A stretch of DNA of 64,000 bases, from positions 359,366-423,365 of the forward strand of contig CALVTO010000001.1 in the NCBI GenBank assembly GCA_944362705.1, written 5' to 3'. Shown one piece after another: positions 1-38,201 of this stretch. The translations under genes were made by a program, and so were the position numbers. The stretch comes from an uncultured Clostridia bacterium (lineage in GTDB: Bacteria > Bacillota > Clostridia > Christensenellales > UBA1242). Below the pieces are notes generated by a model. That model was not told the DNA's origin and searched no databases. It saw only the letters and a program-made list of their open reading frames with translations. Every line of letters begins with the position of its first letter. Within the stretch, counting starts at the first letter, position 1.

Positions 1-1
1 T

Positions 2-3133: not shown

Positions 3134-3145
3134 AGAGGTAGAAAA

Positions 3146-4135
3146 ATGAATACAGAAAAAGAAAAAGCACTAGAACAAGCCATTTCACAAATAGAAAAAC
3201 AATTTGGTAAAGGTTCTATTATGAAATTGGGCGATTCCGCTGTGGAAAAAATTGATGTCATACCAACGGGTTGCTTAACGCTAGATATGGCTTTAGGCGT
3301 TGGAGGTATTCCACGTGGCAGAATTATTGAAATATACGGTCCAGAATCTTCTGGTAAAACTACCGTGTCTTTACACATGATTGCCGAAGCGCAAAAACTT
3401 GGTGGCACGGCAGCCTTTATCGATGCTGAACACGCACTCGACCCTGTATATGCCGCTAGGTTAGGGGTAGATATTAAAAACCTATATGTATCTCAACCAG
3501 ATACCGGTGAACAAGGCCTAGAAATTGCAGAATCGTTAGTTCGAAGTGGGTCACTCGATATTGTAGTTATCGACTCTGTTGCAGCCCTAACACCAAAAGC
3601 AGAAATCGATGGCGAAATGGGCGATAACCATATTGGTTTGCAAGCGCGCTTAATGTCACAAGCTTTACGTAAACTTGCCGGCATTACCAATAAAACAAAA
3701 ACTTGCGTTATCTTTATTAACCAATTACGTGAAAAAGTGGGCGTTATGTTTGGTTCTCCAGAAACCACACCGGGCGGTAAAGCGTTAAAATTCTATGCAA
3801 GTATTCGCCTAGATGTACGTAAAGCCGACGTTATAAAAGAAGGCGCAGAACCTATTGGTAACCGTACACGTGTAAAGGTAGTTAAAAATAAACTTGCACC
3901 TCCATTTAAAACCGCAGAATTTGATATTATTTACGGTTTAGGTATTAGTAAAGAAGGTTGCATACTCGATTTAGCGGTAGAGCACGATATTATTAAAAAG
4001 AGCGGTGCATGGTTTGCCTATAACGATGAAAAAATTGGCCAAGGCAAAGAAAATGCAAAACAATTTTTACAAAACAACCCAGATATTTGTGCAGAAATTG
4101 AACAAAAAATTAAAACAGGCAATTTTGAAGAATAA
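3146..4135 (+). CDS. recA: Recombinase RecA
   Basis: 329 aa with Walker [10 protein letters not shown] and canonical RecA sequence throughout. Confidence 0.98.
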
Positions 4136-4166
4136 TTTTTACGCGGTTTTTAATTACTTGACGCAA

Positions 4167-4205
4167 ATAACACTCTCATGCTATTATGAGAGTGTTATTA
4201 TTTTG
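4167..4205 (+). terminator. Intrinsic terminator after recA
   Basis: 13-bp perfect stem ATAACACTCTCAT / ATGAGAGTGTTAT with a 6-nt loop, followed by a T-rich tail. Confidence 0.8.
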
Positions 4206-4256
4206 TATATTTTACAAAAAACATAGTAACAATTGTTATTTCGGAGGGAACAAAAT

Positions 4257-5822
4257 ATGATGCAAATTTGGCTAAGCGTGCTTTGTATCCTTCTTGCATT
4301 AGGTGGCGGTATTACCGCTGGTTATTTTATATTTAAAGCAGTTTATAAAAAAACCATAGGTAACGCAAAAGAACAATCTGCAAAACTTATCGAAGAAGCA
4401 GAATCCACGGTTAAAGCAATGAAGAAAGAAGCCGTATTAGAAGCAAAAGAAGAAACTATAAAAATGAAAAACGAAGCCGATCAAGAAATGAAACAACGTA
4501 GAAACGAGCTTCAATACATGGAACAACGTTTACTACAACGTGAAGAAACTCTTGACCGCAAAGAAAATAATTTAGACCATAAACAACAGTTACTAGAAGA
4601 TGAAAAAGGCAAAATTGATGCTCGCCTTAAAGAGATAGATACTTTAGAACTTGCCGTAAAAGAAAAAGAAAAAGACATTGTAAAAGAACTAGAAAACGTA
4701 GCAAAACTAAGTAAAGAAGAAGCAAAAAAACAACTTATTACCGCTATTGAAGACGAAGCAAATAAAGAAGCGGGCGCATATTTAAGAGAACTAGAAAACA
4801 AAACGCGTGATGAAGCCGAACAAAAAGCGCGCGAAATTATTACACTTGCCATTCAAAAATGCGCAACCGACCAAACAAGCGAAGTTACTGTTTCATCTGT
4901 AAGTTTACCAAACGAAGAAATGAAAGGCAGAATTATTGGTCGTGAAGGCCGTAACATTCGCGCCATAGAAGCAGCCACAGGAGTAGACTTAATTGTAGAT
5001 GATACACCAGAAGCTATTATACTTTCTTGCTTCGACCCAATTCGTAGGCAAGTTGCAAAACTTACTATAGAAAAATTGATTCAAGATGGCCGTATTCACC
5101 CAGGCAGAATTGAAGAAATTGTTGCAAAAGTAAAAAAAGATTTAGAAAAAAATATCAAAGAAGTTGGTGAAAACGCAACGTTTGAAGCCGGAATATATGG
5201 CTTACACCCAGAACTTATCAAACTATTAGGTAGATTACAATACCGTACAAGTTACGGTCAAAACGTGCTAAAACACTCGCTAGAAACATCATACATCGCA
5301 GGCTTACTTGCAGGCGAACTAGGGGCAGATGAAGCCCTAGCAAAACGCGCAGGTTTATTACACGATATTGGTAAGGCTGTCGATTTTGAAATGGAAGGCA
5401 CGCATGTTTCTATTGGCGTAGAACTTGCTCGTAAGTATAAAGAAAGCGAAGCTGTGGTGCATTGTATAGAAGCCCATCATGGCGGGGTAGAGTTTAAGTC
5501 ACTCGAAGCTATTTTAGTACAAGTTGCCGATGCAATTTCAAGCAGTCGCCCAGGCGCACGCCGTGAATCTATGGACGCATATATTAAACGTCTAGAAAAA
5601 CTTGAAGGCATTGCAAATTCGTTTAAAGGTGTACAACAATCTTACGCCATTCAAGCAGGCCGTGAAATTCGAATTGCTGTAAAACCAGAAGAAGTAAATG
5701 ATGATGGTATGTTCGTACTTGCTAAACAAATTGCACGTAAAATTGAAGCAGAACTTGAATACCCAGGCCAAATTAAAGTACAAATTATACGTGAAACACG
5801 CGCAAGCGATATTGCAAGCTAA
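4257..5822 (+). CDS. rny: Ribonuclease Y
   Basis: N-terminal TM helix, long E/K coiled coil, KH region ([15 protein letters not shown]) and HD domain (LLHDIGKA). ATG at 4257 follows a GGAGGG RBS. Confidence 0.95.
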
Positions 5823-5879
5823 CCTAAACGCGGTATTCATTTATACACAAAAACAATATACAAATAAAAAAGCCAAGCC

Positions 5880-5902
5880 TTAGTCTAGCAATTTTGAAAC
5901 TA
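5880..5902 (+). repeat. Left copy of direct repeat TTAGTCTA-N4-TTTTGAAACTA
   Basis: About 21 of 26 positions match the copy at 7300-7322 by eye. Confidence 0.6.
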
Positions 5903-5912
5903 GCAGAATATT

Positions 5913-5955
5913 AAAGAGAAACATAGACAAAAAAATCGTCTATGTTTCTCTTTTT
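5913..5955 (+). terminator. Intrinsic terminator downstream of rny
   Basis: 14-bp stem AGAGAAACATAGAC / GTCTATGTTTCTCT with a 9-nt A-rich loop, then TTTTT. Confidence 0.8.
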
Positions 5956-6099
5956 ACACCTAACTCTCTTAATTGCAAAAAAAACGAATACTTCTGTCGT
6001 TGTCATAGGTTGTCGTGAGAAACACAACATCTACAAATCTTTTGACATGCACTTTAACCTTGACAACAAAGAATATTCGCTTACACTAGAAAATAGAGA

Positions 6100-6160
6100 G
6101 AAGAAAACAAAAAAGAAAAAGAGCGGATTGCGTTACGCCCTGCCAGCAACCGCTCTTTTT
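6100..6160 (-). terminator. Intrinsic terminator of the 6251-7219 gene
   Basis: Stem GAGCGG..CCGCTC, extendable by A/T pairs. On the minus strand it is followed by a long T-rich run. Confidence 0.7.
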
Positions 6161-6180
6161 GCAACACAATTAGATTATTT

Positions 6181-6237
6181 GCGTGTGCTTGTCTGTTCGA
6201 GCGAAGCGAGAACACTTGTATCAAGACAAGCACACGT
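6181..6237. repeat. Long inverted repeat (14-bp arms, 29-nt spacer)
   Basis: GCGTGTGCTTGTCT ... AGACAAGCACACGT, immediately 3' of the minus-strand gene stop. Confidence 0.7.
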
Positions 6238-6250
6238 CTAACAGCCATTT

Positions 6251-7219
6251 TTATAACGTTTTATTGTTTTCTTCTTTTTCTTTAATTGATTCTAATAATT
6301 TAGGAATATATTCTTTCCAAGAAGTGGTTTGACCTTCATATTCAAGCAATTCATTATATACTTTTTTAACATAAACAAATCCAAATTTATTTTCTATGTC
6401 AAAGAACTTCTGAGTATCAATATTTTCTATCTTTTCTCTTAATCTTATTGTAATTGCTCTAACGATTGTATCGTTAAGGTAAGAAATTGGATTCCCATAT
6501 CCCATGTTTTTGAGTTTGTTTCTTAATTCATCTGGTATTAGTAAACGATTGTTATCGGTGTAGCAATTCACAAAATTATGTACAAATTCGTGGATAATTG
6601 TATGAATTGTTCCGTTATTGAATTTATTAATCGTTTTAAAATCTTCACTTAGCATGCCAATATTGGCAAAATTGTTATTGTTAACTTTAAATCCATGATT
6701 AGCATTAGCTAACATTGGAATAATATTTACAAAAAAATCATCTTGAACTTTATCTTTTAAAAATTTTTGCAATTCATAAATAAAAAGATCTGCATTAAAC
6801 ATTTTCTTTAATTCTTCAATCTTAGAAGAATAGTAAACATTATTATCAATATAAAATTTTTCAAAATTGCTATCTTTTGCAAAATTAACGATTTTGCTCA
6901 TAAATTCTTTTAATAGTTCTTCGTGTTCAAGCTCTTGCAATAAATATTTTTCTATTTTGCCATCAAATTTTAATTGTTTGTTTAATGCAAATGCTAATCT
7001 AATTGGGTTATCAAAACAAAACCCTTCAACATTCTTGGCTATTTGTTTGGCTAGTGCAACCGCTTTGTGATTTTTGAACTTGGAAAAGTGATTATATAAT
7101 AGTTGTCTATATTCATCTTTAATGTCAAAAGAAAAGTGTTCTTCAATATATTCATTTCCTTGCGACAATGCTAAAATAATGCTCATCAACTCTGTTCGTT
7201 TATCTACTATAAAGTTCAT
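6251..7219 (-). CDS. Putative HExxH zinc metallopeptidase-like protein (resembles DUF4932 family)
   Basis: 322 aa with an HEFVHNF (HExxH) motif. The N-terminus VDKRTELMSIILALS..EY resembles DUF4932 from memory. Visibly more AT-rich than its neighbours. Confidence 0.5.
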   Translation of the reverse strand: MNFIVDKRTELMSIILALSQGNEYIEEHFSFDIKDEYRQLLYNHFSKFKNHKAVALAKQIAKNVEGFCFDNPIRLAFALNKQLKFDGKIEKYLLQELEHEELLKEFMSKIVNFAKDSNFEKFYIDNNVYYSSKIEELKKMFNADLFIYELQKFLKDKVQDDFFVNIIPMLANANHGFKVNNNNFANIGMLSEDFKTINKFNNGTIHTIIHEFVHNFVNCYTDNNRLLIPDELRNKLKNMGYGNPISYLNDTIVRAITIRLREKIENIDTQKFFDIENKFGFVYVKKVYNELLEYEGQTTSWKEYIPKLLESIKEKEENNKTL

Positions 7220-7278
7220 TTTTTACTCCTATGTTTTAATTATAACATACAATTTAATAATTTGATAATCTTTTTCTC

Positions 7279-7322
7279 TAGTTTCAAAATGCATTAACTT
7301 TAGTCTATTACTTTTGAAACTA
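7279..7322. repeat. Inverted repeat TAGTTTCAAAA / TTTTGAAACTA (11-bp arms, 22-nt spacer)
   Basis: Perfect 11-bp arms at 7279-7289 and 7312-7322. The right arm is part of the direct-repeat copy at 7300-7322. A further copy, AGTTTCAAAA, lies at 7375-7384. Confidence 0.7.
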
Positions 7323-7493
7323 ATAAAAAAAGAACTTTACATTTATGTGAATAGTTCCTTTAATTTATTTTGCAAGTTTCAAAATGATTAAACCTTATGC
7401 TTGCGCTTTTTTTGTTTTCATCATATTTGAATATATTCTATTATTTTGCCATATACTTTACTAATGTTACAATTTACAAAACCGCCAACGAGT

Positions 7494-8327
7494 ATGCCAC
7501 AAATATTTGATTTACATAACGATTGCCTTACATCCACAAAAGGCAAACTTTCTTATGCGCGTTACATAAAATCGCTACAACAACAGCCCGTTACGCAAGT
7601 TGTGCAAGTTATTTTTACCACAGAATACACCGAGCCTTTACCACAAATTCAAAAGCTTTACCAAACATTTTGTCAACACGCCAACACGCAAACCAAACAT
7701 ATAGCCATAGAAGACTTTTGGTTTGCCACCAAACGTAATGTGCCCACCATTTTACAATACAACCCCTTATATATTGGTTTAACATGGAACGATACCAACC
7801 GTTTAGCAGGTGGAGCCTTTGGTCAGGGCGGGTTAACACCATGGGGCGAACAAGTGGTAAAACAAATTGAACAAACAAGTTTGGTCGATACCGCTCATTT
7901 AAACGAAAAAAGTTTTTACGCATTTGCAAACATTACACAAAAACCCATACTTTGTTCGCATACGGCACTTGCGTCTTTTTATAAACACCCACGTAACCTA
8001 ACCAATGCCCAAATACAAACCATTGTGCAAAGCAATGGTTTAGTGGGGTTGTGTTTTGTTAGTGAATTTATCAATGGAAAAAAACATTGTACGGTACAAG
8101 ATATTGCACAAGAAATTGATTATTTTGTTGAGCATTTTGGTATAGAGCATATTGCCTTAGGTACCGATTTTTACGGAACAAAAAAATTACCTGTTGGCAT
8201 AAAAACCTACGAAGATATTTCTCTTTTATATACCAAACTACAAAATAGGGGATACACAGAAAAACAAATTGAACAACTCTTTTTTCAAAACGCACAAACC
8301 TTTTTTGCTAATGTGTATAAGTCTTAA
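7494..8327 (+). CDS. Membrane (renal-type) dipeptidase, peptidase M19 family
   Basis: M19 landmarks: DLHND, VDTAHLNEKSF, CSHTAL..HPRNLTNAQIQ, GLCF and LGTDFYG. ATG at 7494 preferred over TTG at 7446, but the RBS is weak. Confidence 0.75.
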   Translation: MPQIFDLHNDCLTSTKGKLSYARYIKSLQQQPVTQVVQVIFTTEYTEPLPQIQKLYQTFCQHANTQTKHIAIEDFWFATKRNVPTILQYNPLYIGLTWNDTNRLAGGAFGQGGLTPWGEQVVKQIEQTSLVDTAHLNEKSFYAFANITQKPILCSHTALASFYKHPRNLTNAQIQTIVQSNGLVGLCFVSEFINGKKHCTVQDIAQEIDYFVEHFGIEHIALGTDFYGTKKLPVGIKTYEDISLLYTKLQNRGYTEKQIEQLFFQNAQTFFANVYKS

Positions 8328-8357
8328 AAATAAGTCTGTTTTATAAATGAATATCAT

Positions 8358-8390
8358 AAAAAACACCATGCAATAACATGGCGTTTTTTT
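8358..8390. terminator. Bidirectional hairpin between dipeptidase and recombinase genes
   Basis: A-run, CCATG..CATGG stem, then T7 run. Confidence 0.5.
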
Positions 8391-9468
8391 ATTGTTTGGG
8401 TTCTTCTTTTACTACATCACGTAATTTTACTTTGGTAGCGGCTTCACGACGAATATCATCACTAATTGCAGCATAGTGTTTTTTCGTCGTATTTACGTCT
8501 TTGTGGCCAAGTACATCGGCAACAATATAAATATCTTGCGTTTCACGGTAAAGCGCCGTACCGTACGTACTACGCAACTTATGTGGTGTTATTTTTTTTA
8601 ATGGGGTAACCGCTTTAGCATATTTTTTTACTAAAAGTTCTACTGCGCGTGTGGTCATGCGCTTTTTTTGTAAACTTAAAAACAACGCGCGTTCTTCATT
8701 TGGCACACCTTTGTCTTTCATAAACTGTTCACGCCAATCTACGTAACTTACTAGCGCATCACGTACTTCATCAGAAAAATATAAAACTACTTGGTTGCCA
8801 CCTTTACGCGTAATTTTTATACCGTTAATAGAAAAATCAATATCATCTATATTTAAGCCCACGCACTCGCTCACACGAATACCCGTGCCTAAAAGTAGGG
8901 TAATTAAAGCAAAATCACGCATATCTGTATGCTTATGAAATGCTTGTTCTCTTCCTAAAAGCGCGTACCCGTTTTCGGCTGTGTTTATCATTTTAGCAAC
9001 TTCATCGGTTTCTAACCGAATAATGGTTTTATCATGGTATTTGGGCATGTCTACTTTGCTAGTTACATTTTTTGTCAGCATATCTTTTTTAAAAAAGTAC
9101 TTAAAAAATGTTCGAATCGTAGCAAGTTTTCTACCCTTACCGCGTTCACCATTGGTTATTTGTTTGCCGTTAAACTCGTAACTTGTTAAATAACTAATAA
9201 AACGCTCAATATGTTGCGCCGAAACCTTTTCTAAATCTTCTAGCGTTATATCGTATACGGTTTTTCCGCGTAAAAGATTGGTTTCTTCCAATAAAAAATT
9301 AAAAAATATACGTAAATCATACGCATAATTTAAACGGGTTAGGGTAGAGGTTGTATTTTCAATACCCACAAAAAAGTCATAACAAAAATCAGGCAAATCG
9401 CGTGTAAGTTCCCGAATTTTTTTAATATTCTTTTGATTTCTCTCTGTAAAATAATCTACTTGTTTCAT
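8389..9468 (-). CDS. Tyrosine recombinase, XerS-like architecture
   Basis: GTGIRVSECVGL, TRKGG, HKLRSTYGTALY and LGHKDVNTTKKHY catalytic-domain motifs. Overall layout resembles streptococcal XerS. ATG at 9468; the track start at 9498 is TTG. Confidence 0.75.
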   Translation of the reverse strand: MKQVDYFTERNQKNIKKIRELTRDLPDFCYDFFVGIENTTSTLTRLNYAYDLRIFFNFLLEETNLLRGKTVYDITLEDLEKVSAQHIERFISYLTSYEFNGKQITNGERGKGRKLATIRTFFKYFFKKDMLTKNVTSKVDMPKYHDKTIIRLETDEVAKMINTAENGYALLGREQAFHKHTDMRDFALITLLLGTGIRVSECVGLNIDDIDFSINGIKITRKGGNQVVLYFSDEVRDALVSYVDWREQFMKDKGVPNEERALFLSLQKKRMTTRAVELLVKKYAKAVTPLKKITPHKLRSTYGTALYRETQDIYIVADVLGHKDVNTTKKHYAAISDDIRREAATKVKLRDVVKEEPKQ

Positions 9469-9512
9469 ATAACCATAGTATAGCAAAACTATTCGCAAAA
9501 CACAACTAAAAA

Positions 9513-9528
9513 ATACATGCGTATGTAT
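9513..9528. repeat. Near-perfect 16-bp palindrome ATACATGCGTATGTAT
   Basis: 7 of 8 arm pairs are Watson-Crick and one is G-T. Lies between the recombinase start and the serS promoter. Confidence 0.6.
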
Positions 9529-9535
9529 ATTCTTA

Positions 9536-9565
9536 TTGACAAAGTTTCATAAAAAGTATTATATT
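9536..9565 (+). promoter_or_regulatory. Sigma-A-type promoter candidate for serS
   Basis: TTGACA, a 17-18 nt spacer, then TTATAT/TATATT. It sits about 30 nt upstream of the ATG, leaving no room for a T-box leader. Confidence 0.5.
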
Positions 9566-9591
9566 TAAAAGAAAAAAAGTAGGAAATATAT

Positions 9592-10878
9592 ATGATAGCT
9601 ATTGAACTTATACGAAACAATCCAGAACTAGTCAAAGAAAATATAAAAAAGAAATTTCAGCACGAAAAACTTCCACTTGTAGATGAAGTTTTAACATTAG
9701 ATGCCGAACTAAGAAAATATAAACAACAAGGCAACGAACTTAGAAGCAAACGTAACACATTAAGTGCACAAATTGGGCAATACATGCGCAATAAAGAAAT
9801 TGAAAGAGCCAACGAAGTTAAAGCCGAAGTTGTTAAAAATAACGAAAAAATTGCAGAAATCGAAGTCAAAGAAGCTGAACTTGGTGAAAAAGTAAAACAA
9901 ATTATGATGCAAATACCAAACATCATAGCACCCGATGTTCCTATTGGTAAAAACGATACAGAAAATGTAGAAGTAAAACGCTACTTAGAACCAAAAATTC
10001 CAGACTTTGAAATTCCGTACCATGTCGATATTTTAGAAAAACTAAACGGCATTGATATCGATAGCGCACGCCGTACAAGTGGCCAAGGTTTTTATTATTT
10101 GCTTGGCGATATTGCTCGTTTACATTCTGCTGTGCTTACATACGCGCGCGATTTTATGATAGATAAAGGTTTCACATACGTTATTCCTCCATACATGATT
10201 CGAAGCGAAGTTGTAACTGGCGTTATGAGCTTTGCCGAAATGGACGGCATGATGTACAAAATTGAAGGGGAAGATTTATACCTAATCGGCACAAGTGAAC
10301 ATTCTATGATTGGTCGCTTTATGAATACCATTATTCCAGAAGCACAATTACCACTTACGTTAACAAGTTACTCACCATGTTTCCGTAAAGAAAAAGGTGC
10401 GCATGGCTTAGAAGAACGTGGTATTTACCGTATTCACCAATTTGAAAAACAAGAAATGATTGTTGTTTGTAAGCCAGAAGATAGTTCAACTTGGTTTGAA
10501 AAATTATACAACTACACGGTAGAACTATTTACAAGTATGGAAATACCTGTCCGCACATTAGAGTGCTGTTCGGGCGATTTAGCCGATTTAAAATATAAAA
10601 GCATTGATGTTGAAGCATGGAGTCCACGTCAAAAGAAATATTTTGAAGTTGGTAGTTGCTCTAACCTAACCGATGCACAAGCACGTCGCTTGGGCATTCG
10701 TTATAAAACCGAAAAAGGTAACGAGTTTGCACACACATTAAATAATACCGTAGTAGCACCACCACGCATGCTTATTGCATTTATTGAAAACCACTTACAA
10801 GCCGATGGCTCTGTACGTATTCCAAAAGTATTGCAACCTTACATGGGCGGTAAAACAGAAATTTCTGTTAAAAAATAA
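9592..10878 (+). CDS. serS: Seryl-tRNA synthetase
   Basis: 428 aa with an N-terminal coiled-coil arm and class II core motifs (FRKEKGAHG, YRIHQFEKQE, GSCSN). Confidence 0.95.
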   Translation: MIAIELIRNNPELVKENIKKKFQHEKLPLVDEVLTLDAELRKYKQQGNELRSKRNTLSAQIGQYMRNKEIERANEVKAEVVKNNEKIAEIEVKEAELGEKVKQIMMQIPNIIAPDVPIGKNDTENVEVKRYLEPKIPDFEIPYHVDILEKLNGIDIDSARRTSGQGFYYLLGDIARLHSAVLTYARDFMIDKGFTYVIPPYMIRSEVVTGVMSFAEMDGMMYKIEGEDLYLIGTSEHSMIGRFMNTIIPEAQLPLTLTSYSPCFRKEKGAHGLEERGIYRIHQFEKQEMIVVCKPEDSSTWFEKLYNYTVELFTSMEIPVRTLECCSGDLADLKYKSIDVEAWSPRQKKYFEVGSCSNLTDAQARRLGIRYKTEKGNEFAHTLNNTVVAPPRMLIAFIENHLQADGSVRIPKVLQPYMGGKTEISVKK

Positions 10879-11247
10879 AAACATGTATATTTTAACGTAA
10901 ACAAAATATACTAACCATAAACTATATACATAACGCATGGTAATACATTTAGGTAAACTGTATGGTTTACATAAAACATGGTAAACGTTATTATATAGTT
11001 TTTTTGTGCGCTTTTTTATGTGTACATATATTGAATAAACTGTTATGTTTTATTTTGTTGTGCAAGCATAAGCTATACAATACAATGTTTTAAAATGTAT
11101 GAAAAATATGCATATTACGCTTTACATATCATATACTAATATTAGACGATATCTTAAAACAAGTTTTGTTGAAATCTTCAAAAAACAAGGGTTAAGAAAT
11201 CGTCTTTTTTTATAGTAAAATTTTTATAATAACAGTAACACTGTATA

Positions 11248-11408
11248 AACTTACGCGGTGCAAGTTTTTGGTTTTACATTACAAACAACGCCTGCAACGC
11301 TCTGAGACAAATTTTTTTAATTTAATGTATCCGCACAAAGTCAAGCTATATACAACCTTATAGCCGTCTTATAACACGCTATTGCATTAGAATGTTTTTA
11401 TACACAAT
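11248..11408 (+). repeat. Noncoding module copy 1 (core CAACGC-N3-CAACGC-N-CTGAGACA)
   Basis: AACTTACG anchor at 11248, core at 11286-11309, TATCCG at 11328, GTTTTTATACA at 11394. Paralogous to 11745-11868. Confidence 0.6.
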
Positions 11409-11425
11409 CATCTATCAATTTTTAT

Positions 11426-11458
11426 ATAAAAAATGGGGAAGAGTATACCCCATTTTTT
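11426..11458. terminator. Bidirectional terminator-like hairpin
   Basis: A-run, ATGGGG / CCCCAT stem with a 9-nt loop, then T6. Confidence 0.6.
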
Positions 11459-11744
11459 ATTATCCATATTTTTTAGTTATACCATGTAGTACGTTGTTCG
11501 GCATCTTAATATAAACACACATACTACCAAACAATATACAAATGTTTTTATATGCAAGCATTACTTAAAACATTTTACCTTGCAAAAACAATGTGAATAG
11601 TTGCGATTTTACAATTCATTTTTCATTATGTATCTGTATCACACAACTTTATTTTAATCAACGTTTACTAACACGCACAGCAAACGCCTTTAAGCACAGT
11701 TCATGTACATTTATAAAAACAAACACATTATAAAAACTCGAATC

Positions 11745-11868
11745 AACTTACGTCACACAAGTATTTTCAAATTCAAAATATAACCAACGCGTACAACGCG
11801 CTGAGACAGAATTTTATAAAAAGCACGAACATTTATCCGTTAAAAATTTGTGCGTTTTTATACAATAC
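11745..11868 (+). repeat. Noncoding module copy 2
   Basis: Same anchors in the same order: AACTTACG at 11745, core at 11785-11808, TATCCG at 11834, GTTTTTATACA at 11854. About 46 nt shorter than copy 1. Confidence 0.6.
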
Positions 11869-11882
11869 AATAAAAAAACGCA
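11851..11882. other. Hairpin TGCGTTTTT / AAAAACGCA (9 bp, 14-nt loop)
   Basis: Read directly from the sequence. It ends module copy 2. Confidence 0.5.
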
Positions 11883-12157
11883 TCATGGCACAAATCAAAA
11901 GATTTTTAAATTTTTGTTATAGAATAGAAATAAACTTAAAAAATGAAAAAACAATACGGTAAAATAAACGCATTTTATCACACATACCACAACAAACATG
12001 TATTATGTCAAATCATACACAGTAGTATGTGGCGTAAAAAAAAGCGCCAAAACAACCAAATACCGTTAGTTGTAACGCATAATTGTTAAAAACTCGCGCC
12101 AACAGTTAAAAACACAAACTTTTCGCAAAATTATTTATTTTGTATATAAAAAGGCTT

Positions 12158-12193
12158 TATTTATTCGCAAAAGCTGTCTTTTGCGAATAAATA
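12158..12193. other. Strong hairpin (13 perfect + 3 flanking bp, 4-nt loop)
   Basis: TTATTCGCAAAAG-CTGT-CTTTTGCGAATAA. No adjacent U-tract on either strand. Confidence 0.6.
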
Positions 12194-12584
12194 TTTACAT
12201 GTTTGTTAATATTTTGTTAATAACATGCGCAAACAAAACCCTATTTAAAACCCCAAAAGTTTTCCACAAAGTTATTAACAAACCCCCTTCTTTGTTACTT
12301 TTTTTGCCCTAATATATCGGCATGCGCCGTTTTATTAACAAAAACATACGAATGTATTGCTAACCTAATGCTTGCTCACATGATTTTTTTTACTATATTA
12401 TGCAGTACATGTTTTGTTTGCATACTCTACTTACGTAACCACTTCCCTTTACGCTGTAAAATTTTGGCATAAAAAAAGACTATAAACTAAAACAAGTTTT
12501 CACATAAACAAATAGTTTATACGTTCTCATTTCATTTTATAGTCTACTTATAGTATATGTTACTACTTAAACTTTATGCACAAT

Positions 12585-13250
12585 TTATAAAAACATTTCT
12601 AAAACAAACGCCATGCTTTTTAATTGCATCTTCGCTTTTTTATATTCAGGCATCATTAGCTCTACTGCTTTCCAGAATCTTGCCGAATGGTTTTGTTCTA
12701 TTAAGTGTGCAAGCTCATGAATCATTACATAATCTATACAAAATTCATTTAACAATATAAGTCGCCAATTCAACCTTATATTTCCCGTTGTGGTACAAGA
12801 ACCCCACTTACCTGTTGCATTGGTTAAACTTATGCTTGTTGGTTTCATTTTAAATCGTTTATAAAAATATTGCATACGCTCTGCAAAGTGTTTTTTCGCA
12901 AGCGCTTTATACCAATTTTTAAGTTTTGCATACAATTTCTTAGCAGGCACATCTGGCACAACAATGACACCATCATCGCCAAAAGTTATTTTTCGTATAT
13001 TCCCTTGCTCCACAGTAAACGCCTGACCAAGGTATAAAAGTTTTTTATAGTTTAATACATCTTCATACCCGTGCATATTTGCCTGTATTTCACTCAGTTT
13101 ACGTTCTACCCAATCAGTATGCGCGTCATAAAATTTTTCAATACTTTCTAAACTGGCTTTAAGCGGTGCCTTTATTTTTACTTCACCCCTGCGCGAAATC
13201 GTAATAGCCAACGTTTTTCGCTTGCTTCGTTCAATTAAAATATCTTTCAC
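12585..13250 (-). CDS. YgjP-like metal-dependent hydrolase (DUF45 / M48-like HExxH)
   Basis: WGSC..G.IRLNWRLI....IDYVMIHELAHLIEQNHSARFW is the characteristic DUF45 core. Confidence 0.75.
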   Translation of the reverse strand: MKDILIERSKRKTLAITISRRGEVKIKAPLKASLESIEKFYDAHTDWVERKLSEIQANMHGYEDVLNYKKLLYLGQAFTVEQGNIRKITFGDDGVIVVPDVPAKKLYAKLKNWYKALAKKHFAERMQYFYKRFKMKPTSISLTNATGKWGSCTTTGNIRLNWRLILLNEFCIDYVMIHELAHLIEQNHSARFWKAVELMMPEYKKAKMQLKSMAFVLEMFL

Positions 13251-13367
13251 AGTCTTGTCCTCTACCCGCTAGTATATCACACTTTTTATACAGAATAAAA
13301 CGCTTTTATGTTAAGCTCCACACGAAAATTTGATAAATTTGTAAAATCTAATACTTGTATATTTTAA

Positions 13368-13397
13368 TTGACTTGTCACACATAGTACTGGTATACT
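13368..13397 (+). promoter_or_regulatory. Promoter candidate for the tandem-PadR gene
   Basis: TTGACT, an 18-nt spacer ending in TGg (extended -10), then TATACT. Confidence 0.5.
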
Positions 13398-13427
13398 TAT
13401 ATAAATATAATTTTAGGGGTGAACTAT

Positions 13428-15941
13428 ATGTCTGGAATTGATAGCGAACTAATCCGTGGACATATCGATACCATCATTTTAAAAACGTTAGATGGTAGCA
13501 GTAAATACGGCTACGAAATTTGTCACGATGTAGAAACCGTTAGCAACGGTGAATACGAATTAAAACAGCCAACACTATATAGTTGTTTAAAGCGCTTAGA
13601 AGATAAAGGGCTTATTTCTTCTTATTGGGAAGATAGCGATATTGGTGGCCGTAGGCATTATTATAAACTTACACAAGAAGGTAAAAAAGTATACAACGAA
13701 AACACAAAAAACTGGATACTTTCTCGTGATATTATCGATAGTTTAATTTTAGATAACACCACCCCATCCTATTCAGCCGAAGAACTTGTAGAAATAGATG
13801 CCGACCTTATTCGTGGTAATATCGATACCATTATTTTAAAAACCTTAGAAACAGGTGCAAAATATGGCTATGAAATTTGTCGAGATGTAGAAGAAAAAAG
13901 CAACAAAACCTACGAGTTAAAACAACCAACACTATATAGTTGCTTAAAGCGCTTAGAAGATAAAGAACTTATTTCTTCCTACTGGGAAGATAGCGATATT
14001 GGTGGCCGTAGGCACTACTATAAACTTACGCAAAAAGGCGTGGAAGCTTTGCAAGAAAATAAACTTGCATGGGAAGAATCTAAAGAGCTTATTAACCGCC
14101 TAATTTTTAACAGTGCTACATATACGCAACACGTTTCCCCGACTACTTCTACCACCACGCAAACTATGGCTAATGAACATGTAAACTTCATTGACTCCGC
14201 AATAACCGAAGTAAATGAACAGCAACCTGAAACCGTAACCGAAGAAACTACACAACAGGTGCTTGAAGAAGAAACAAATAACGGTTCTTTTGAAAACACT
14301 GAAACTGATAACGAAGTGGTTGAAGAACCGGTTGAAGAAGAATCTACTTACCCAACCATTTCACAAATAGAAGACGCTTCCACTGTAGACGATGCGTGGT
14401 TTGCCGATGAAACAACAGAAACAACAAATATCGATGCTGAAGAAGAAACTGTTGAAGCCGACGAAACATCGTCAACCGAACCATCTCAAATCAACGAATC
14501 GCAAGAAAACGAAGAAACTAGTGCTACCGAAGAAACAGAAGAAACCACTACCCCTTCTTTCTTTGCACAAAGCGAAGACGATACCGATTGTCAAGTTGAC
14601 ATACCGCAAACGTCATCTATTATTCGTGAAAAAACTCTAGAAAACACCTCAAACGCAACAGAAGAAGAAACAAACAATATTGGTATGGAAGAAGATGAAG
14701 AAACTGAAAACAACGAAACAAGTTTCGATGACTTTTTAGCGCAAAACGAATCTAACTACGCTCTGCAAGTTTCACAACAAAAACCAGCAACGCAACAAGA
14801 AGAAACCACGCAAGACGATTTGTTCGATACACTACACTTCTCTTCTATTACCGATGAAATAGAACCATTACAACCACAACAAACCCAATCTATGGCTTCT
14901 CAAAGTAACGAACCAACCATAATTTTGCCAGATATTATTGAAGAAACCTCCGATACAGATTTTGATATTCATCAATATATTTCGCAAAATAAAAGCTATG
15001 TAAACGCAACCACCGAAGAGCAAAATATCACGTTTTCTCCAAAACCAACGGTTTCTGCTACAGAGCCCGATGAGAACACAACCTATACTTTCTACAAACA
15101 AGAAGAACAACAAGAAAACGCTATCAAAGAACCTGTTGCCTCTGTAGATGAAGACGATACCGAAGACTATGAAGACGACCACAAATACGATGATGAAATC
15201 TTTTTAGATTATAAACCTAATAAAGAAAAAGAAACGCAAGAACAACCGAACAGCACAGAAGAAAGCGTAACAGAAGAAAAACCGTTATACACAGCAACCT
15301 ATACAGAAAAAGAATACCGCGATGCGCTTGATAAACTTTCTGCATATACAAAGAATAACGAACTTAACGATTCACATGAAGATTTACAAACCACTGAAAA
15401 AACAAGTTTAGAAGCATTGCAGAAAAAACTAGAACAAAAAGGCATTACTCTTTCTATTTATCAACGTGGTGTTAGCGTTCCAGAGTCAACAAAAAATTAT
15501 GTAGCAACCAATAAAATTAAAATGGTACGTTCGCTTATTACATTGTGCTTTATGTCGTTTCTGCTTGCACTTACCTACATATCTTTAAACAATTATGGTT
15601 ACGTTAATCAAGACCTTTACGCAACCAACACCTACTTTATTGTTGCTTTTGCGCTTATTTGCATACCACCTATTTTTGCTAGCATACGCTACGCTATTCA
15701 TCCAACAAAAAAACATATAGCTCGGTTTGCACCAAGAATTTCGCTATTATTTGCCCTTCTATTTACCGTGCAAATTTTAGTTATTATTTATTCTGTAAAC
15801 CTGCAGTTAGGTTTTACATCGTTTACACAAACCAATTATAACCATTTAAATTGGATTGTTCCTTGCGTGTTAACGCTATACTTATTTGTTGATTGCATCG
15901 TGTACATTATTTTATATAACTCTAAAAAGTTTCATAAATAG
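13428..15941 (+). CDS. Membrane-anchored protein with two tandem PadR-type wHTH domains and a long acidic low-complexity linker
   Basis: Two PadR-like units (LIRG.IDTIILKTL..YGYEI...ELKQPTLYSCLKRLEDK.LISSYWEDSDIGGRRHYYKLT). Then about 470 aa rich in E/T/Q/D/N, and about four hydrophobic helices at the C-terminus. ATG at 13428 follows AGGGGTG. Confidence 0.7.
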   Translation: MSGIDSELIRGHIDTIILKTLDGSSKYGYEICHDVETVSNGEYELKQPTLYSCLKRLEDKGLISSYWEDSDIGGRRHYYKLTQEGKKVYNENTKNWILSRDIIDSLILDNTTPSYSAEELVEIDADLIRGNIDTIILKTLETGAKYGYEICRDVEEKSNKTYELKQPTLYSCLKRLEDKELISSYWEDSDIGGRRHYYKLTQKGVEALQENKLAWEESKELINRLIFNSATYTQHVSPTTSTTTQTMANEHVNFIDSAITEVNEQQPETVTEETTQQVLEEETNNGSFENTETDNEVVEEPVEEESTYPTISQIEDASTVDDAWFADETTETTNIDAEEETVEADETSSTEPSQINESQENEETSATEETEETTTPSFFAQSEDDTDCQVDIPQTSSIIREKTLENTSNATEEETNNIGMEEDEETENNETSFDDFLAQNESNYALQVSQQKPATQQEETTQDDLFDTLHFSSITDEIEPLQPQQTQSMASQSNEPTIILPDIIEETSDTDFDIHQYISQNKSYVNATTEEQNITFSPKPTVSATEPDENTTYTFYKQEEQQENAIKEPVASVDEDDTEDYEDDHKYDDEIFLDYKPNKEKETQEQPNSTEESVTEEKPLYTATYTEKEYRDALDKLSAYTKNNELNDSHEDLQTTEKTSLEALQKKLEQKGITLSIYQRGVSVPESTKNYVATNKIKMVRSLITLCFMSFLLALTYISLNNYGYVNQDLYATNTYFIVAFALICIPPIFASIRYAIHPTKKHIARFAPRISLLFALLFTVQILVIIYSVNLQLGFTSFTQTNYNHLNWIVPCVLTLYLFVDCIVYIILYNSKKFHK
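13449..14033 (+). repeat. Internal direct duplication (two 228-nt units, 357-nt period) encoding the two PadR domains
   Basis: Units at 13449-13676 and 13806-14033. In the 3' halves roughly 9 of 10 nucleotides are identical by eye. Confidence 0.85.
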
Positions 15942-16053
15942 TAAACGTTTCATATTGTAAAAAGAGAAAAAAGCTACAGCATTTTACAAAAAGTTTTATG
16001 CAAAAAACAAAGATTATTGAAATTTTGAGAAAAATTTAATTAAGGAGAGAATT

Positions 16054-16422
16054 ATGAAATTTTTTAGATGTAAACATTGTGGCAATATTATTGCATACGT
16101 AAAAAATAGCGGGGTTAAAGTTGTATGTTGTGGTGAACCAATGGAAGAAATAACTGCAAATTCAACAGACGCTGCACAAGAGAAACACGTTCCTATGGTT
16201 AAAGTTGAAAGAAACCTTGTTACAGTTACTGTTTCAAGTGTCGAACACCCAATGACAAATGAACATTATATTGAATGGGTTGCTTTAGAAACAAAACTTG
16301 GTAACCAAAGAAAAAATCTACAACCTAATACAAAACCAGAAGTACAATTTTCAATGTTAAATGGAGATGAAATTAAAACTGTGTATGCGTATTGCAATTT
16401 GCATGGTCTTTGGAAAAGTTGA
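16054..16422 (+). CDS. dfx: Desulfoferrodoxin-type superoxide reductase
   Basis: 122 aa with an N-terminal CxxC..CC desulforedoxin-like centre (CKHCGN..VCCGEPM) and EKHVP..HPM..EHYIEW..C..HGLW. Confidence 0.85.
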   Translation: MKFFRCKHCGNIIAYVKNSGVKVVCCGEPMEEITANSTDAAQEKHVPMVKVERNLVTVTVSSVEHPMTNEHYIEWVALETKLGNQRKNLQPNTKPEVQFSMLNGDEIKTVYAYCNLHGLWKS

Positions 16423-16671
16423 TTTTAAGGAAATACACATCCATCCTAAACAAAAATATATTGAGTTATGAAGTATAACTTTTTAAACATGGTATTTCAC
16501 CGACCTTACAGAAAAATGGCTGGTGCTACAACATTATAAATTGTGTTGACGAATGAAACAAAAAAGCGTAAAACGCAATTTATTTGTTAAGTAAAATAAC
16601 GTAAACAAACTACAAAACACTAAAATGAATATATAAAAAACTTTTTAAGTTTAAAGCATTTTAAAATGAGT

Positions 16672-16716
16672 TCAAAAAAAAAGGAACTTAGTAAAAGTAT
16701 TAAGTTCTTTTTTTTA
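16672..16716. terminator. Bidirectional terminator between dfx and rnhA
   Basis: A-run, GAACTTA / TAAGTTC stem, then T8. Confidence 0.65.
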
Positions 16717-16766
16717 TTATTTTAACAAATAATAAGTCACCGACGTTTGTTCTTTAATTAACTATA

Positions 16767-17219
16767 TTACACGCTCACTTTAGCTTTTGCAATTGCCGAA
16801 GTTGCTAACTTATCACACCTGTTATTGTATTCGTTGTCAGCGTGTCCTTTTACTTTTACCCAAGTTATTTTATGAATTTGTGTAAAATACAAAACACGTT
16901 GCCATAAATCGACATTTTTCACTGCTTGTTTTGAAGCGTTTTTCCAATCATTCATTTCCCAAGCAACCACCCAGTTTTGTAAAAAAGCATTTACCACATA
17001 AGCGGAATCGCTATACAGTGTAACATCACACGGCATTTTTAATTGTTCTAGCGCTTTAATTACTGCCATAAGCTCCATACGGTTGTTGGTTGTATCTTTT
17101 TCAAAACCACTACCCTCTTTTTTATGTGCACCATATAACAAAACAAAACCCCAACCTCCTATACCAGGGTTTCCAGAGCATGCTCCATCTGTATAAACAT
17201 CTACATGTATATTTTTCAT
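16767..17219 (-). CDS. rnhA: Ribonuclease HI
   Basis: YTDGACSGNPG.GGWG, NNRMEL, YSDS and VKGHADNEYNNRCDKLA motifs. Met-8 (17219) aligns best with the E. coli RNase HI N-terminus. Confidence 0.85.
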   Translation of the reverse strand: MKNIHVDVYTDGACSGNPGIGGWGFVLLYGAHKKEGSGFEKDTTNNRMELMAVIKALEQLKMPCDVTLYSDSAYVVNAFLQNWVVAWEMNDWKNASKQAVKNVDLWQRVLYFTQIHKITWVKVKGHADNEYNNRCDKLATSAIAKAKVSV

Positions 17220-17318
17220 GGTTTTATTATAAAATATCATATGTTTTTACGCAAATGTTTTCCTTTGAAATCATTGACTTTTTTTGTCAGGTATGATACC
17301 ATAATTTTGCTCACATTT

Positions 17319-17392
17319 AGGGGTGTAGTTCATCGGTAGAATAAGAGTCTCCAAAACTCCTGAGGAGGGTTCGATTCCTTCCACCCCTGCCA
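17319..17392 (+). tRNA. tRNA-Trp (anticodon CCA)
   Basis: Hand-folded cloverleaf: acceptor AGGGGTG/CACCCCT, anticodon loop CTCCAAA, T-loop TTCGATT, and an encoded CCA. Confidence 0.85.
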
Positions 17393-17504
17393 TAAAAACA
17401 ACTAACCGCTTACATAGCGGTTTTTATTATACTTTCCGTTTGGAATCTCACCCTACGGGTTCGCCCCTGTCGGGGCCAGACCGCAAACACGCGAAACCGC
17501 GCGT
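17377..17504 (+). repeat. Direct repeat copy 1 (starts with the last 16 nt of tRNA-Trp)
   Basis: CCTTCCACCCCTGCCATAAAAACAA..., then a terminator and a GC-rich element. Near-identical to 17562-17689. Confidence 0.9.
17404..17425 (+). terminator. Terminator after tRNA-Trp
   Basis: AACCGCT / AGCGGTT stem followed by T5. Confidence 0.7.
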
Positions 17505-17561
17505 ATTGCTCCCGGCTCACGCTAAAAACTTGCCACAGGCAACTTTTCTTAACGCGTCGCC

Positions 17562-17689
17562 CCTTCCACCCCTGCCATAAAAACAATCAACCGCTTACAC
17601 AGCGGTTTTTTTTATGCTTTTTGTTTGAAATCTCACCCTACGGGTTCGCCCCTGTCGGGGCCAGACCGCAAACACGCGAAACCGCGCGT
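17562..17689 (+). repeat. Direct repeat copy 2 (orphan tRNA-Trp 3' end + terminator + GC-rich element)
   Basis: Offset is 185 nt from copy 1. There is no 5' tRNA half upstream, since no AGGGGTG acceptor strand is present. Confidence 0.9.
17589..17613 (+). terminator. Duplicated terminator hairpin
   Basis: AACCGCT / AGCGGTT stem followed by T8. Confidence 0.6.
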
Positions 17690-17732
17690 TCTGTCTTAAC
17701 CACAAAAATAAAATTCTTTACTATAAATTTTC

Positions 17733-17770
17733 AAACATTTGTTTACATTTTTACAATTATTTGGTACAAT
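17733..17770 (+). promoter_or_regulatory. lexA promoter with overlapping SOS-box-like palindrome
   Basis: AAAC-ATTT-GTTT (17733-17744) overlaps the -35 TTTACA. A 17-nt spacer precedes the -10 TACAAT (17765-17770). Confidence 0.55.
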
Positions 17771-17788
17771 AGCATTAAGGAGTGCATT

Positions 17789-18391
17789 ATGAGTTTAAAG
17801 TGCGAAAAGAAAACCGAACAACTACTTGAATTTATTACACATTTTATTCAAAAAAACAACTACCCACCATCTGTTCGCGAAATGCAAAAAGGCATTGGTG
17901 TAGCCTCAACAGCAACTATCAATTATTATTTAGAAAAATTACAAAAGCTAAATTTAATAAAAAAATCAGCCATGAAAAACCGTACCATCGAACTTGTGCG
18001 CACGGAAGAACAACCAGAATCTGTTTCTGTTCCATTTGTTGGTCAAGTTGCTGCAGGTGTTCCTATTTTAGCTGAAGAACACATTGAAGAATATATACCG
18101 CTTCCTAAAAACATGTTTCATAAAGATGAAATGTTTTTACTTAACGTTGTTGGCGAAAGTATGATAAACGCAGGCATTTTACCTAACGACAAAGTTATTG
18201 TACAAAAAACATCATCCGCAAAAAATGGAGATATTGTGGTTGCACTTATAGATCAAAGCGCCACCGTGAAACGCTTTTTTAAAGAAAAAGATCATATTCG
18301 CTTGCAACCCGAAAACGATTTTATGGAACCTATCCTTGTGAAAAATGTTGACATTTTAGGCATTGTTATTGGTTTATTAAGACAATATTAA
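17789..18391 (+). CDS. lexA: LexA repressor
   Basis: N-terminal wHTH (PPSVREMQKGIGVAS), cleavage region VAAG, and the Ser/Lys dyad (GESM ... TVKRF). ATG at 17789 follows AAGGAG. The track's N-terminal extension runs through the repeat. Confidence 0.92.
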   Translation: MSLKCEKKTEQLLEFITHFIQKNNYPPSVREMQKGIGVASTATINYYLEKLQKLNLIKKSAMKNRTIELVRTEEQPESVSVPFVGQVAAGVPILAEEHIEEYIPLPKNMFHKDEMFLLNVVGESMINAGILPNDKVIVQKTSSAKNGDIVVALIDQSATVKRFFKEKDHIRLQPENDFMEPILVKNVDILGIVIGLLRQY

Positions 18392-18465
18392 AAAATATAA
18401 AAAGGCAAGGCATTTACTTTGCCTTTATTTTTGTTTTTGTTATACTTTCTTAGGAGTTATACATC

Positions 18466-19638
18466 ATGAAAATTAAAAAAAGACATTCACGTTGGTTTAA
18501 AATTGCAAGACCAATTATCCATAATTTAATTAGTAAAAAATTTAACTATACTTGCACACCATGCAACATAAAACCCCCTTTTATCGTACTTGGCAACCAT
18601 ACAACCGATTACGATGCATTTTTTATTGCAGACGCATTTCAAGACCCTATTCATTTTGTCATGAGCGACCATATTACCACCTTACCTGTGGTTGGTAAAC
18701 TTATTCCGTTTTTAGTAGGAACAATTCCCATAACGAAATCTAGCCGCGATACACAATCCTTGCGCTCTGTCATTTCCGTTATCCATCAGGGTGGCGCTGT
18801 GGGAATTTTTCCCGAAGGCAATAAATCTTTCAGTGGCGATGTAAGCTATATCAAACCTACCATTGCAAAAGTTTTAAAAAAATTAAACGTTCCTTTAATA
18901 TTATTTACCATTGAAGGCGGGTACTTTTCCTCCCCTCGTTGGACAAAAAATAAACGTTTAGGTAGAGTATACGGCCATGCAGCAAAAATATTTTCTGCTG
19001 AAGAAATTAAACAACTTTCCACTGAACAATTGTACAATATAATTAAAGAAACTTTACATATTAACGCATACGAAGTACAAAAACAAAACCCTAGTACATA
19101 TGTGGGCCCAAATTTAGCTGAAAATATTGAAACATTTTTATATGTTTGCCCAGAATGTAAAAATATTTCTACCTTACATGGCGAAGGCAATACAATTACT
19201 TGCTCCCATTGCTCATTTAAAGCAACGTATAACGAATACGGGTATTTAGATTATGCACCTATGCCACAGCTCGACCAATTAGACCGTATGCAAAAAGAAT
19301 ATTTACTTCACCTGCCTTGGGATACTTATCCAAAAGATAAAATGATTACGCAAGATAGTGGTTGGGTTATTGCACGAAAAATTACAAAATATAAAAGCAA
19401 AAAACTAGGCACATTTACATTGCAACTAACCACACAAACCTTAACATTTACAAACAAAAAACAAACAACCATCATACCGTTGCAAGATATAGCTGGCTAT
19501 GCTATCGAAGGCGTAAACGGCATTCAACTTTGGTTAAGAGATGGCACCGTTTACCGCATGAAAAACAAAGGCGCTGTAAGTGGTTTAAAATATGTAAACA
19601 TGATAAGCGCCATAACCAAAACCCCTATGAAATTTTAA
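18466..19638 (+). CDS. PlsC-family acyltransferase with a C-terminal zinc-ribbon-containing extension
   Basis: NHTTDYD (HX4D) and FPEGNKSF acyltransferase motifs, then CPECK...CSHC in the C-terminal half. Confidence 0.7.
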   Translation: MKIKKRHSRWFKIARPIIHNLISKKFNYTCTPCNIKPPFIVLGNHTTDYDAFFIADAFQDPIHFVMSDHITTLPVVGKLIPFLVGTIPITKSSRDTQSLRSVISVIHQGGAVGIFPEGNKSFSGDVSYIKPTIAKVLKKLNVPLILFTIEGGYFSSPRWTKNKRLGRVYGHAAKIFSAEEIKQLSTEQLYNIIKETLHINAYEVQKQNPSTYVGPNLAENIETFLYVCPECKNISTLHGEGNTITCSHCSFKATYNEYGYLDYAPMPQLDQLDRMQKEYLLHLPWDTYPKDKMITQDSGWVIARKITKYKSKKLGTFTLQLTTQTLTFTNKKQTTIIPLQDIAGYAIEGVNGIQLWLRDGTVYRMKNKGAVSGLKYVNMISAITKTPMKF

Positions 19639-38174: not shown

Positions 38175-38201
38175 TTAATAGTCGACGCAGTTCGAACAAG
38201 T

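Follow-up and report, generated by a model that had tools for sequence, protein, structure and literature searches.

Introduction

The closest described counterparts of the locus analysed here are XerS/difSL of streptococci and lactococci (Le Bourgeois 2007; Nolivos 2010, PMC2965235; reviewed in PMC5357621) and XerH/difH of Helicobacter and Campylobacter, and linkage between recombinase gene and site is a hallmark of both modules (PMC2731167, PMC5357621). The difSL site is 31 bp long and has an 11-bp centre between unequal arms, TTTCCGAAAA and TTTTCTTGAAA (PMC5357621); the criteria for dif sites used in the following are those of Carnoy and Roten 2009 (PMC2731167). Here we examine a block of about 1.7 kb (positions 10879-12584) within a 64,000-nt window from an uncultured Clostridia bacterium (contig CALVTO010000001.1), the window being the whole stretch of DNA that was analysed. 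We consider it probable that this block is the intergenic region around a chromosomal single-recombinase site of the Xer/dif type, which is embedded in dispensable filler and exploited by single-stranded DNA (ssDNA) phages in the manner of integrative mobile elements exploiting Xer (IMEX).

In E. coli, lysogeny of gokushoviruses relies on the host, as integration needs XerC/XerD together with a dif motif carried by the phage (Kirchberger and Ochman 2020, PMC7062461). Other IMEX among ssDNA phages are the microvirus proviruses of Bacteroidetes (PMC3091885) and inoviruses of the CTX/VGJ type. Up to 2022, microvirus prophages had been reported only from Bacteroidales, Hyphomicrobiales and Enterobacteriaceae (PMC9753089), and CRISPR matches point to Clostridiales as hosts of gut microviruses (PMC10159846). 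In the open-access literature we found neither the sequence of the site described below, nor its range of Clostridia hosts, nor lysogeny of microviruses in Clostridia.

A preliminary description of the window had presented the block as an A+C-skewed stretch free of open reading frames (ORFs), with several strong hairpins and two diverged copies of a module, and had offered a cluster of non-coding RNAs (ncRNAs), a decayed mobile element or terminus-associated DNA as explanations.

Results

A dif-like site between serS and ygjP

The genes on either side of the block are convergent, as had been described: serS (9592-10878, plus strand), whose product carries the Pfam domains tRNA-synt_2b and Seryl_tRNA_N, and a minus-strand gene for a YgjP-like metallopeptidase (12585-13250). 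Between them, at 12162-12189 (plus strand), lies the 28-mer TATTCGCAAAA-GCTGTC-TTTTGCGAATA, in which 11-bp inverted arms enclose an asymmetric 6-bp centre. It is nested in a perfect 16-4-16 palindrome (12158-12193, TATTTATTCGCAAAAG-CTGT-CTTTTGCGAATAAAT; fold z -7.1), the strongest of the hairpins that had been pointed out, and is present in a single copy in the window at up to three mismatches, with none expected by chance. The arrangement agrees with the inverted arms of about 11 bp and the centre of 6-8 bp that characterize dif sites, as does the intergenic position, which is shared by the metagenome loci inspected. The lower G+C content of dif sites is not seen here, the 28-mer having 10 of 28 positions (36%) compared to 35% for the window.

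Close comparison is possible with one sister species (L091), the sole close comparator in view of the identity gaps among homologues: SerS identity drops from at least 99% in conspecific contigs straight to 82%, and YgjP identity steps from 99% to 86% and then to 40%. In the 1,364-nt spacer of the sister species, a conserved core (11975-12245), comprising the site and flanking repeats, is about 93% identical over some 180 nt, while the YgjP protein is only 86% identical. The repeats are GTTAAAAAC (12085-12093 and 12105-12113) and TTGTTAATA (12203-12211 and 12214-12222), and among strains of the window's species 12079-12178 shows 0-1 variable sites per 50 nt. An orphan half site, TTTTCGCAAAA (12120-12130, plus strand), lies 31 nt upstream of the full site, differs from the left arm at one position and is conserved in the sister species as well. 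The same holds for the 180 nt left of the site, which contain GTTAAAAAC twice and which are likewise conserved there. A shorter motif, TGTTAAAAACTCRCGC, is found again beside the site of a related family. In L024, from a related genus, the syntenic position between a serS-side ORF and ygjP is occupied by another perfect 16-4-16 palindrome, TATCTCTGCGTAAAAC-TTGT-GTTTTACGCAGAGATA, with the same geometry and five arm positions altered symmetrically.

Metagenome contigs were scanned with the site core TTCGNANAAGCTGTNTTTTGCGAA, which was found in 89 contigs from human, ruminant and termite guts, once in each, contigs of over 600 kb among them, and in 78 distinct contexts. Across species with unrelated flanks, a core of 24 nt is invariant; the outer arm positions differ between species, yet remain complementary.

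We also considered a canonical Firmicutes dif site, for which a match to TTATGTAAAC near 10965 had been picked out by eye. It was dropped, as its arms are out of dif register.

A linked XerS-like recombinase

On the far side of serS, a minus-strand gene (8389-9498) encodes a tyrosine recombinase with a Pfam Phage_integrase domain, of 359 aa according to annotation pipelines and 369 aa as the longest ORF. Among NCBIfam models, XerS scores best (NF003462; E 8.5e-58, 195.8 bits over the full length, cutoff 267 bits), followed by XerC, XerA and XerD, and the catalytic domain of the protein aligns to XerA/XerD structures. The gene also stands beside serS in three other genera (L024, L054 and L085; 52-57% identity), and this conserved neighbourhood argues that it is an old resident rather than a prophage integrase.

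In about 30 of the 89 metagenome contigs, a homologue of the recombinase (48-63% aa identity) is located within about 3.5 kb of the site. In about ten contexts the distance shrinks to 89-250 bp, and the 5' end of the gene always points toward the site, while ygjP and padR are common on the other side. In these loci, recombinase and site adjoin as one module. An integron, an idea prompted by the recombinase together with a cassette-like indel of 499 bp, was rejected: the TIGR02249 score is 77.9 bits against a cutoff of 265, the modules of the block lack attC-like symmetry, and serS separates the gene from the block.

Phages at the site

The window represents an empty site, and a conspecific strain carries an occupied one. 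Contig ERZ16268183 scaffold_833 (L096/L111) runs parallel to the window as far as 12192, and longer flanks place an insert of 5,025 nt at window position 12193|12194, the right end of the palindrome. The seven genes of the insert (Phage_F major capsid, Chlamy_scaf, Phage_ORF5, REP_ORF2-G2P and three small ORFs) include no integrase or recombinase; the element is a gokushovirus-like microvirus prophage. It is bracketed by a 20-nt direct repeat, GCTGTCTTTTGCGAATAAAT, with the intact palindrome on its left and, on its right, a hybrid site whose left arm, GTTCGTCAAT, is degenerate and phage-derived.

Two free microvirus genomes contain attP-like counterparts of the site. PQ006515.1 (Bajarodmic virus 400), a complete 5.2-kb microvirus from rodent faeces, matches 12132-12220 at 76% identity over a non-coding stretch of 89 nt; the match takes in TTTTCGCACAAGCTGTCTTTTGCGAATAG and the two flanking repeats, and its part opposite the palindrome reads TTTTCGCACAAG-CTGT-CTTTTGCGAATAG. 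Judging from the two sequences, either phages may have captured host sequence or the host may have kept phage sequence. By BLAST, the matches of the block in GenBank phages are confined to the site. A fuzzy search of microvirus loci revealed TATTCGCAAAAGCTGTGTTTGTTGAA in the nearest relative of the prophage capsid (IMG/VR L116, 49% aa identity); no exact copy of GCTGTCTTTTGCGAATAA turned up in the viral contigs scanned.

A second phage family uses the site in an abundant human-gut species, in which the distance between site and recombinase is about 1.36 kb or about 7.0 kb, depending on the strain. The extra 5.65 kb (L259, L222, L226, L269) encodes Zot and a G2P-type Rep, identifying the element as an inovirus, and has a degenerate copy of the site at its end. 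No integrase was found among the large ORFs of the element in L259, and other strains of this species have an empty site.

For the L111 prophage and the inovirus alike, an integrase-less element is flanked by the host site and by a phage-derived dif-like site. On this comparison of loci, integrase-less ssDNA phages carry a mimic of the site and integrate beside the host copy, which is IMEX behaviour. Since two unrelated families of integrase-less ssDNA phages use one and the same site, the inserting enzyme would be that of the host and not Rep.

Two further observations concern the site. In a related family, loci L254, L205 and L237 on the one hand and L256 on the other have a common right flank of the site and two unrelated left flanks, which suggests that another element integrated on the other side. 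GenBank entry MT835478.1 (L197), a 102-kb unverified 'Bacteriophage sp.', has a host-type site, TTCGTAAAAGCTGTGTTTTGCGAA, with flanks as in many human-gut bacterial contigs, and may be a bacterial fragment filed as phage.

Composition and strand skew

The only distinctive compositional trait of the block is its G+C content of 0.278, which places it in the lowest 0.2% of 1.7-kb windows. Its GC skew (-0.200) equals the background of the whole window (-0.183) and is the median (50th percentile) for stretches of 1.7 kb. What makes the block rich in A+C is therefore regional rather than specific to it: unconstrained DNA here displays the strand bias that mutation imposes on the region as a whole. 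In this respect the preliminary description, which had singled the block out as skewed, has to be corrected, although its count of C over G from about 11.28 kb onward was accurate (skew -0.27 over 11281-12584 compared to +0.06 over 10879-11280). Its argument that an A+C-rich strand fits no simple lagging-strand skew was wrong, because richness in C and A is precisely the look of a lagging strand.

GC skew was compared on the two sides of the site in 18 metagenome loci that extend 3 kb or more in either direction. In 15 of them it is positive to the left and negative to the right, and in none is the order reversed, although this count overstates independence, as several of the 18 are contigs of one species. 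The plus-to-minus pattern spans at least seven G+C classes. In the window, genes converge on the block (1-19000, together with L113, which extends about 9.5 kb further left than the window): all genes from relA through serS are on the plus strand for 29 kb to the left, a run that includes relA, rpsO, pnp, ftsK, a miaB-like gene, pgsA, cinA, recA, rny and serS, and those to the right are mostly on the minus strand. The gene ftsK, whose product would activate dimer resolution by a Xer recombinase, lies about 12 kb to the left, a position that is uninformative on function. Pooled intergenic skew is -0.09 left and -0.16 right of the block, and the plus-strand skew at third codon positions is negative on both sides. 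Overall skew and third-position skew are about three-fold weaker on the left, with the same sign on both sides, at odds with the gene orientation. By composition, the long run of essential genes (rpsO, pnp, ftsK, recA, rny, serS) looks head-on to replication.

The remainder of the block

The absence of ORFs of 60 aa or more from the block, as described before, was confirmed. The longest, a pipeline-called ORF of 48 aa (11943-12089), is not kept in the sister species, where its ATG is absent and conservation shows no three-base periodicity. Every other spacer in the window had been stated to be no longer than about 430 bp; the one exception, 38059-38955, is filled by seven tRNA genes (38202-38739).

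The lineage belongs to uncultured Clostridia from animal guts. Among 185,579 species representatives, the closest SerS (79% identity) comes from metagenome-assembled genomes of the Borkfalkia/Scatosoma type. In 80 related loci, an ORF comes directly after serS, in most cases no more than 200 nt and never more than 961 nt away, and none of these loci has DNA in common with the block, which is therefore lineage-specific. A search of the block by tblastn with all ORFs of at least 70 aa from these loci gave only noise, and a pseudogene or remnant of a neighbouring gene was rejected, as no trace of them was detected. The conservation of the spacer in relatives that the preliminary description had proposed to look for is seen in the sister species, where it covers the core and smaller patches: 10899-10981 (76% identical), a terminator-like hairpin and a single module copy. 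An apparent replacement of 419 nt in L092 was rejected, since it corresponds to a scaffold gap of 100 N.

Among conspecific contigs, the spacer varies between 1,208 and 1,726 nt. Its serS-proximal part (10879-10994), which contains two 17-nt direct repeats, TACATAAMRCATGGTAA, is kept in all strains, with 2 variable sites per 50 nt among eight strains and no significant fold (z -0.5). The following 800 nt or so (10995-11793) are dispensable, fast-evolving, indel-prone filler, as natural strains lack parts of it: L094 is without 10995-11336, L100 without 11026-11239, and L010 without 11295-11793; L100 additionally has a local duplication of 53 nt. The indel junctions show microhomology only, with no target duplications and no terminal inverted repeats. 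Divergent strains differ at 6-9% of positions in 11245-12030, compared to 1.8% in the flanking genes, and at about 2% in 10879-11244 and 12031-12260, from which it follows that some 800 nt evolve about like unconstrained DNA and two parts are constrained. A stretch of 200 nt (11029-11228) is near-invariant in eight strains (0-1 variable sites per 50 nt) and wholly missing from two, which a recent insertion or a sweep could explain; terminal repeats and a second copy within the window are absent.

The two diverged copies of a module, copy A (11245-11320) and copy B (11742-11819), were correctly recognized. The module is about 75 nt long, its copies are 77% identical between 11273-11320 and 11772-11819, and for their shared core, CAACGCNTRCAACGCKCTGAGACA, no match would be expected by chance. 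In L010, exactly 499 bp between the copies are gone and a hybrid module, CAACGCCTG|CAACGCGCTGAGACAG, is left; the copies recombine with each other, deleting 499 bp. No segment of the block recurs elsewhere within the window, as a miniature inverted-repeat transposable element would.

Besides the palindrome, a second strong hairpin (11426-11458; z -4.6 as DNA, -2.8 as RNA) resembles a two-way intrinsic terminator, with an A-run, a G+C stem and a T-run, and is probably the serS terminator. Its counterpart in the sister species is built on a different stem and lies about 20 nt past the conserved serS-proximal spacer; in the window's species, about 440 nt of filler now lie between serS and the hairpin. 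At the other end, a long minus-strand hairpin followed by U7 (12475-12546; RNA fold -23.1 kcal/mol, z -4.0), which shares its stem ends, GACTATAA/TTATAGTC, with the sister species, is probably the ygjP terminator. Two further hairpins that had been called strong are not: that at 11851-11882 is modest (z -2.3), and that at about 12320 is not significant (z -1.3).

Neighbouring genes

A minus-strand DUF4932 gene (6251-7219), before which lies an ORF of 99 aa, is present in the window and in L113. In strains L111 and L112, which lack the DUF4932 gene, rny directly precedes a gene for an M19 peptidase. The third-position skew of the DUF4932 gene is opposite to that of its neighbours, and the gene is probably a strain-variable insertion. 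To the right of ygjP, a plus-strand gene (13419-15941) encodes a protein of 840 aa (836-840 aa among strains) with two PadR domains, whose DNA (13436-13681 and 13793-14000) is about 81% identical, indicating an internal duplication. PadR-type genes frequently adjoin the site in other species.

Discussion

The combination of a conserved dif-like site, a linked XerS-like recombinase and two families of integrase-less phages at one position leads us to favour a chromosomal single-recombinase Xer/dif-type site as the explanation of the block. In the mechanism that we propose, two monomers of the recombinase encoded at 8389-9498 would bind the two arms, and strands would be exchanged at the edges of the central region. 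The cellular role would be the resolution of chromosome dimers, as for XerS/difSL and XerH/difH. By the comparison of loci, a phage attP consists of one good and one degenerate arm, and on integration the host site stays intact at one end of the element while a hybrid site arises at the other end.

Several observations weigh against a site of this kind. GC skew in the window is about -0.05 over the 20 kb to the left of the block and about -0.19 to its right, and since it steps down without a change of sign, the location of the terminus is unproven here. Plus-strand genes on the left have a third-position skew that resembles that of a lagging strand, no sign change occurs within the 13 kb of L024, and the independence of the 18 skew loci is smaller than their number. 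Terminus-associated DNA, as one of the original candidates, comes close, though in another sense than had been meant: in most of the homologous loci from other species, the site lies at the plus-to-minus switch. The recombinase falls short of the XerS equivalog cutoff, and its gene is 2.7 kb away from the site, on the other side of serS. Its pairing with the site is proposed from sequence comparison and linkage, and the genome may encode XerC/XerD as well. Finally, no similarity was detected between the filler and either the L111 prophage or 80 related microviruses from IMG/VR, which in blastn and tblastn searches matched the block at the att region only. Direct homology being absent, traffic and repair at the site are only an inferred source of the filler. 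Of the earlier suggestion of a decayed mobile element, what stands is that ssDNA phages integrate at the site of the block, while no phage remnant was detected in the filler.

Among the alternatives, it seemed conceivable that the block encodes ncRNAs, be it small RNAs built on the repeated module or one large structured RNA. An ORF-free block with several hairpins invites this idea. Module copy B and the copy of the sister species can form a minus-strand hairpin (z -3.6 for copy B), in which G.U pairs are kept despite different 3' halves, and the 180 nt left of the site are more than 90% conserved in the sister species for no demonstrated reason. However, the block yielded no match to Rfam 15 at the gathering threshold and only noise in E-value mode (best E 0.086), so that the scan suggested at the outset identified no family, and promoter-like sites are fewer than in shuffled sequences (9 compared to 13.1 expected). 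Copy A forms no stable hairpin and is decayed in strains L004 and L005, in which copy B is disrupted as well. Moreover, natural strains do without 10995-11793, the 80 related species have no such block, and its conserved core is common to phage DNA and coincides with the recombination junction. We therefore regard an ncRNA locus, the first candidate of the preliminary description, as improbable.

About equally doubtful is a reading in which the palindrome serves a phage HUH Rep or an unlinked host integrase as attachment site or origin-like hairpin and has no role in dimer resolution. Such a function would suit ssDNA replicons with Rep proteins, a perfect hairpin palindrome whose outer arm positions covary between species, and a window in which the skew keeps its sign. 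But Microviridae and Inoviridae are unrelated and have different Reps, and nevertheless share the site; exchange by a tyrosine recombinase predicts a flanking repeat such as that of 20 nt, with the site intact at one end and hybrid at the other; and the site is conserved in phage-free genomes, beside a host recombinase gene and at skew switches. A decayed gene or prophage whose palindrome only terminates transcription, or else serves as an operator of, say, the adjacent PadR-type regulator, is more remote still: related genera do carry genes between serS and ygjP, a scan for terminators picks up the palindrome (minus strand), and PadR and ygjP often adjoin the site, but neither the ORFs of the 80 related loci nor the prophage proteins find anything in the block by tblastn, the A4/T4 runs lie inside the stem beside the loop instead of following it, and the 24-nt core is invariant amid unrelated flanks, with a recombinase often next to it in place of PadR or ygjP.

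A broader claim builds on the Xer/dif-type reading of the block, and we see the case for it as evenly balanced: that an XerS-like enzyme and the site TATTCGYAAAA-GCTGTS-TTTTGCGAATA form an undescribed single-recombinase Xer/dif system of uncultured gut Clostridia, which is also a lysogeny site for gokushovirus-like microviruses and inoviruses. The clade in question would be broad and comprise Christensenellales/Borkfalkiaceae-like bacteria and their relatives from the guts of humans, rodents, ruminants and termites. Few viruses of human and animal guts are as abundant as microviruses, whose hosts and lifestyles are largely inferred. A chromosomal site with a linked recombinase and a matching motif on the phage would provide a direct link to the host and a mechanism of lysogeny in Clostridia; if the claim is true, copies of the motif on phage genomes could be used to assign hosts to gut microviruses, and XerS, XerH and XerA, the few single-recombinase Xer systems listed so far, would be joined by a further variant. 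A more general lesson for the scanning of genomes is that a long ORF-free spacer of low G+C content can be a landing pad at a recombination site and need not be an RNA locus.

How does the locus relate to the described systems? With XerS/difSL it has in common a single recombinase of about 356-360 aa that is linked to its site and for which XerS is the best NCBIfam match, as well as inner A4/T4 runs of the arms (TTTCCGAAAA / TTTTCTTGAAA in difSL, TTCGCAAAA / TTTTGCGAA here). It differs in its 11-6-11 layout, with symmetric arms that extend to 16 nt, where difSL has an 11-bp centre and unequal arms, and furthermore in a score below the XerS cutoff, in its host, an uncultured gut Clostridia bacterium, and in the position of serS between gene and site. 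The geometry is that of XerH/difH, ATTGAAAA-CTATAA-TTTTCAAAT in difH compared to ATTCGCAAAA-GCTGTC-TTTTGCGAAT here; difH likewise has a 6-bp centre, lies between genes and is linked to one recombinase, the distance varying from 66 bp to tens of kb. Phylum and arm sequence are different, and among the models compared the recombinase is best matched by those of the XerS and XerC/XerD types. The overall grammar of the site, ATT..AAAA, 6 nt, TTTT..AAT, resembles difH and the arms of difSL. As for the phages, the L111 element shares with the gokushovirus prophages of enterobacteria (PMC7062461) the lack of an integrase, the dif mimic, and the pairing of a host site with a more variable, phage-derived one. 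As in the IMEX phages described so far, both microviruses and inoviruses use the site; what sets the present case apart is a host among the Clostridia and a site of the single-recombinase type in place of a XerCD dif.

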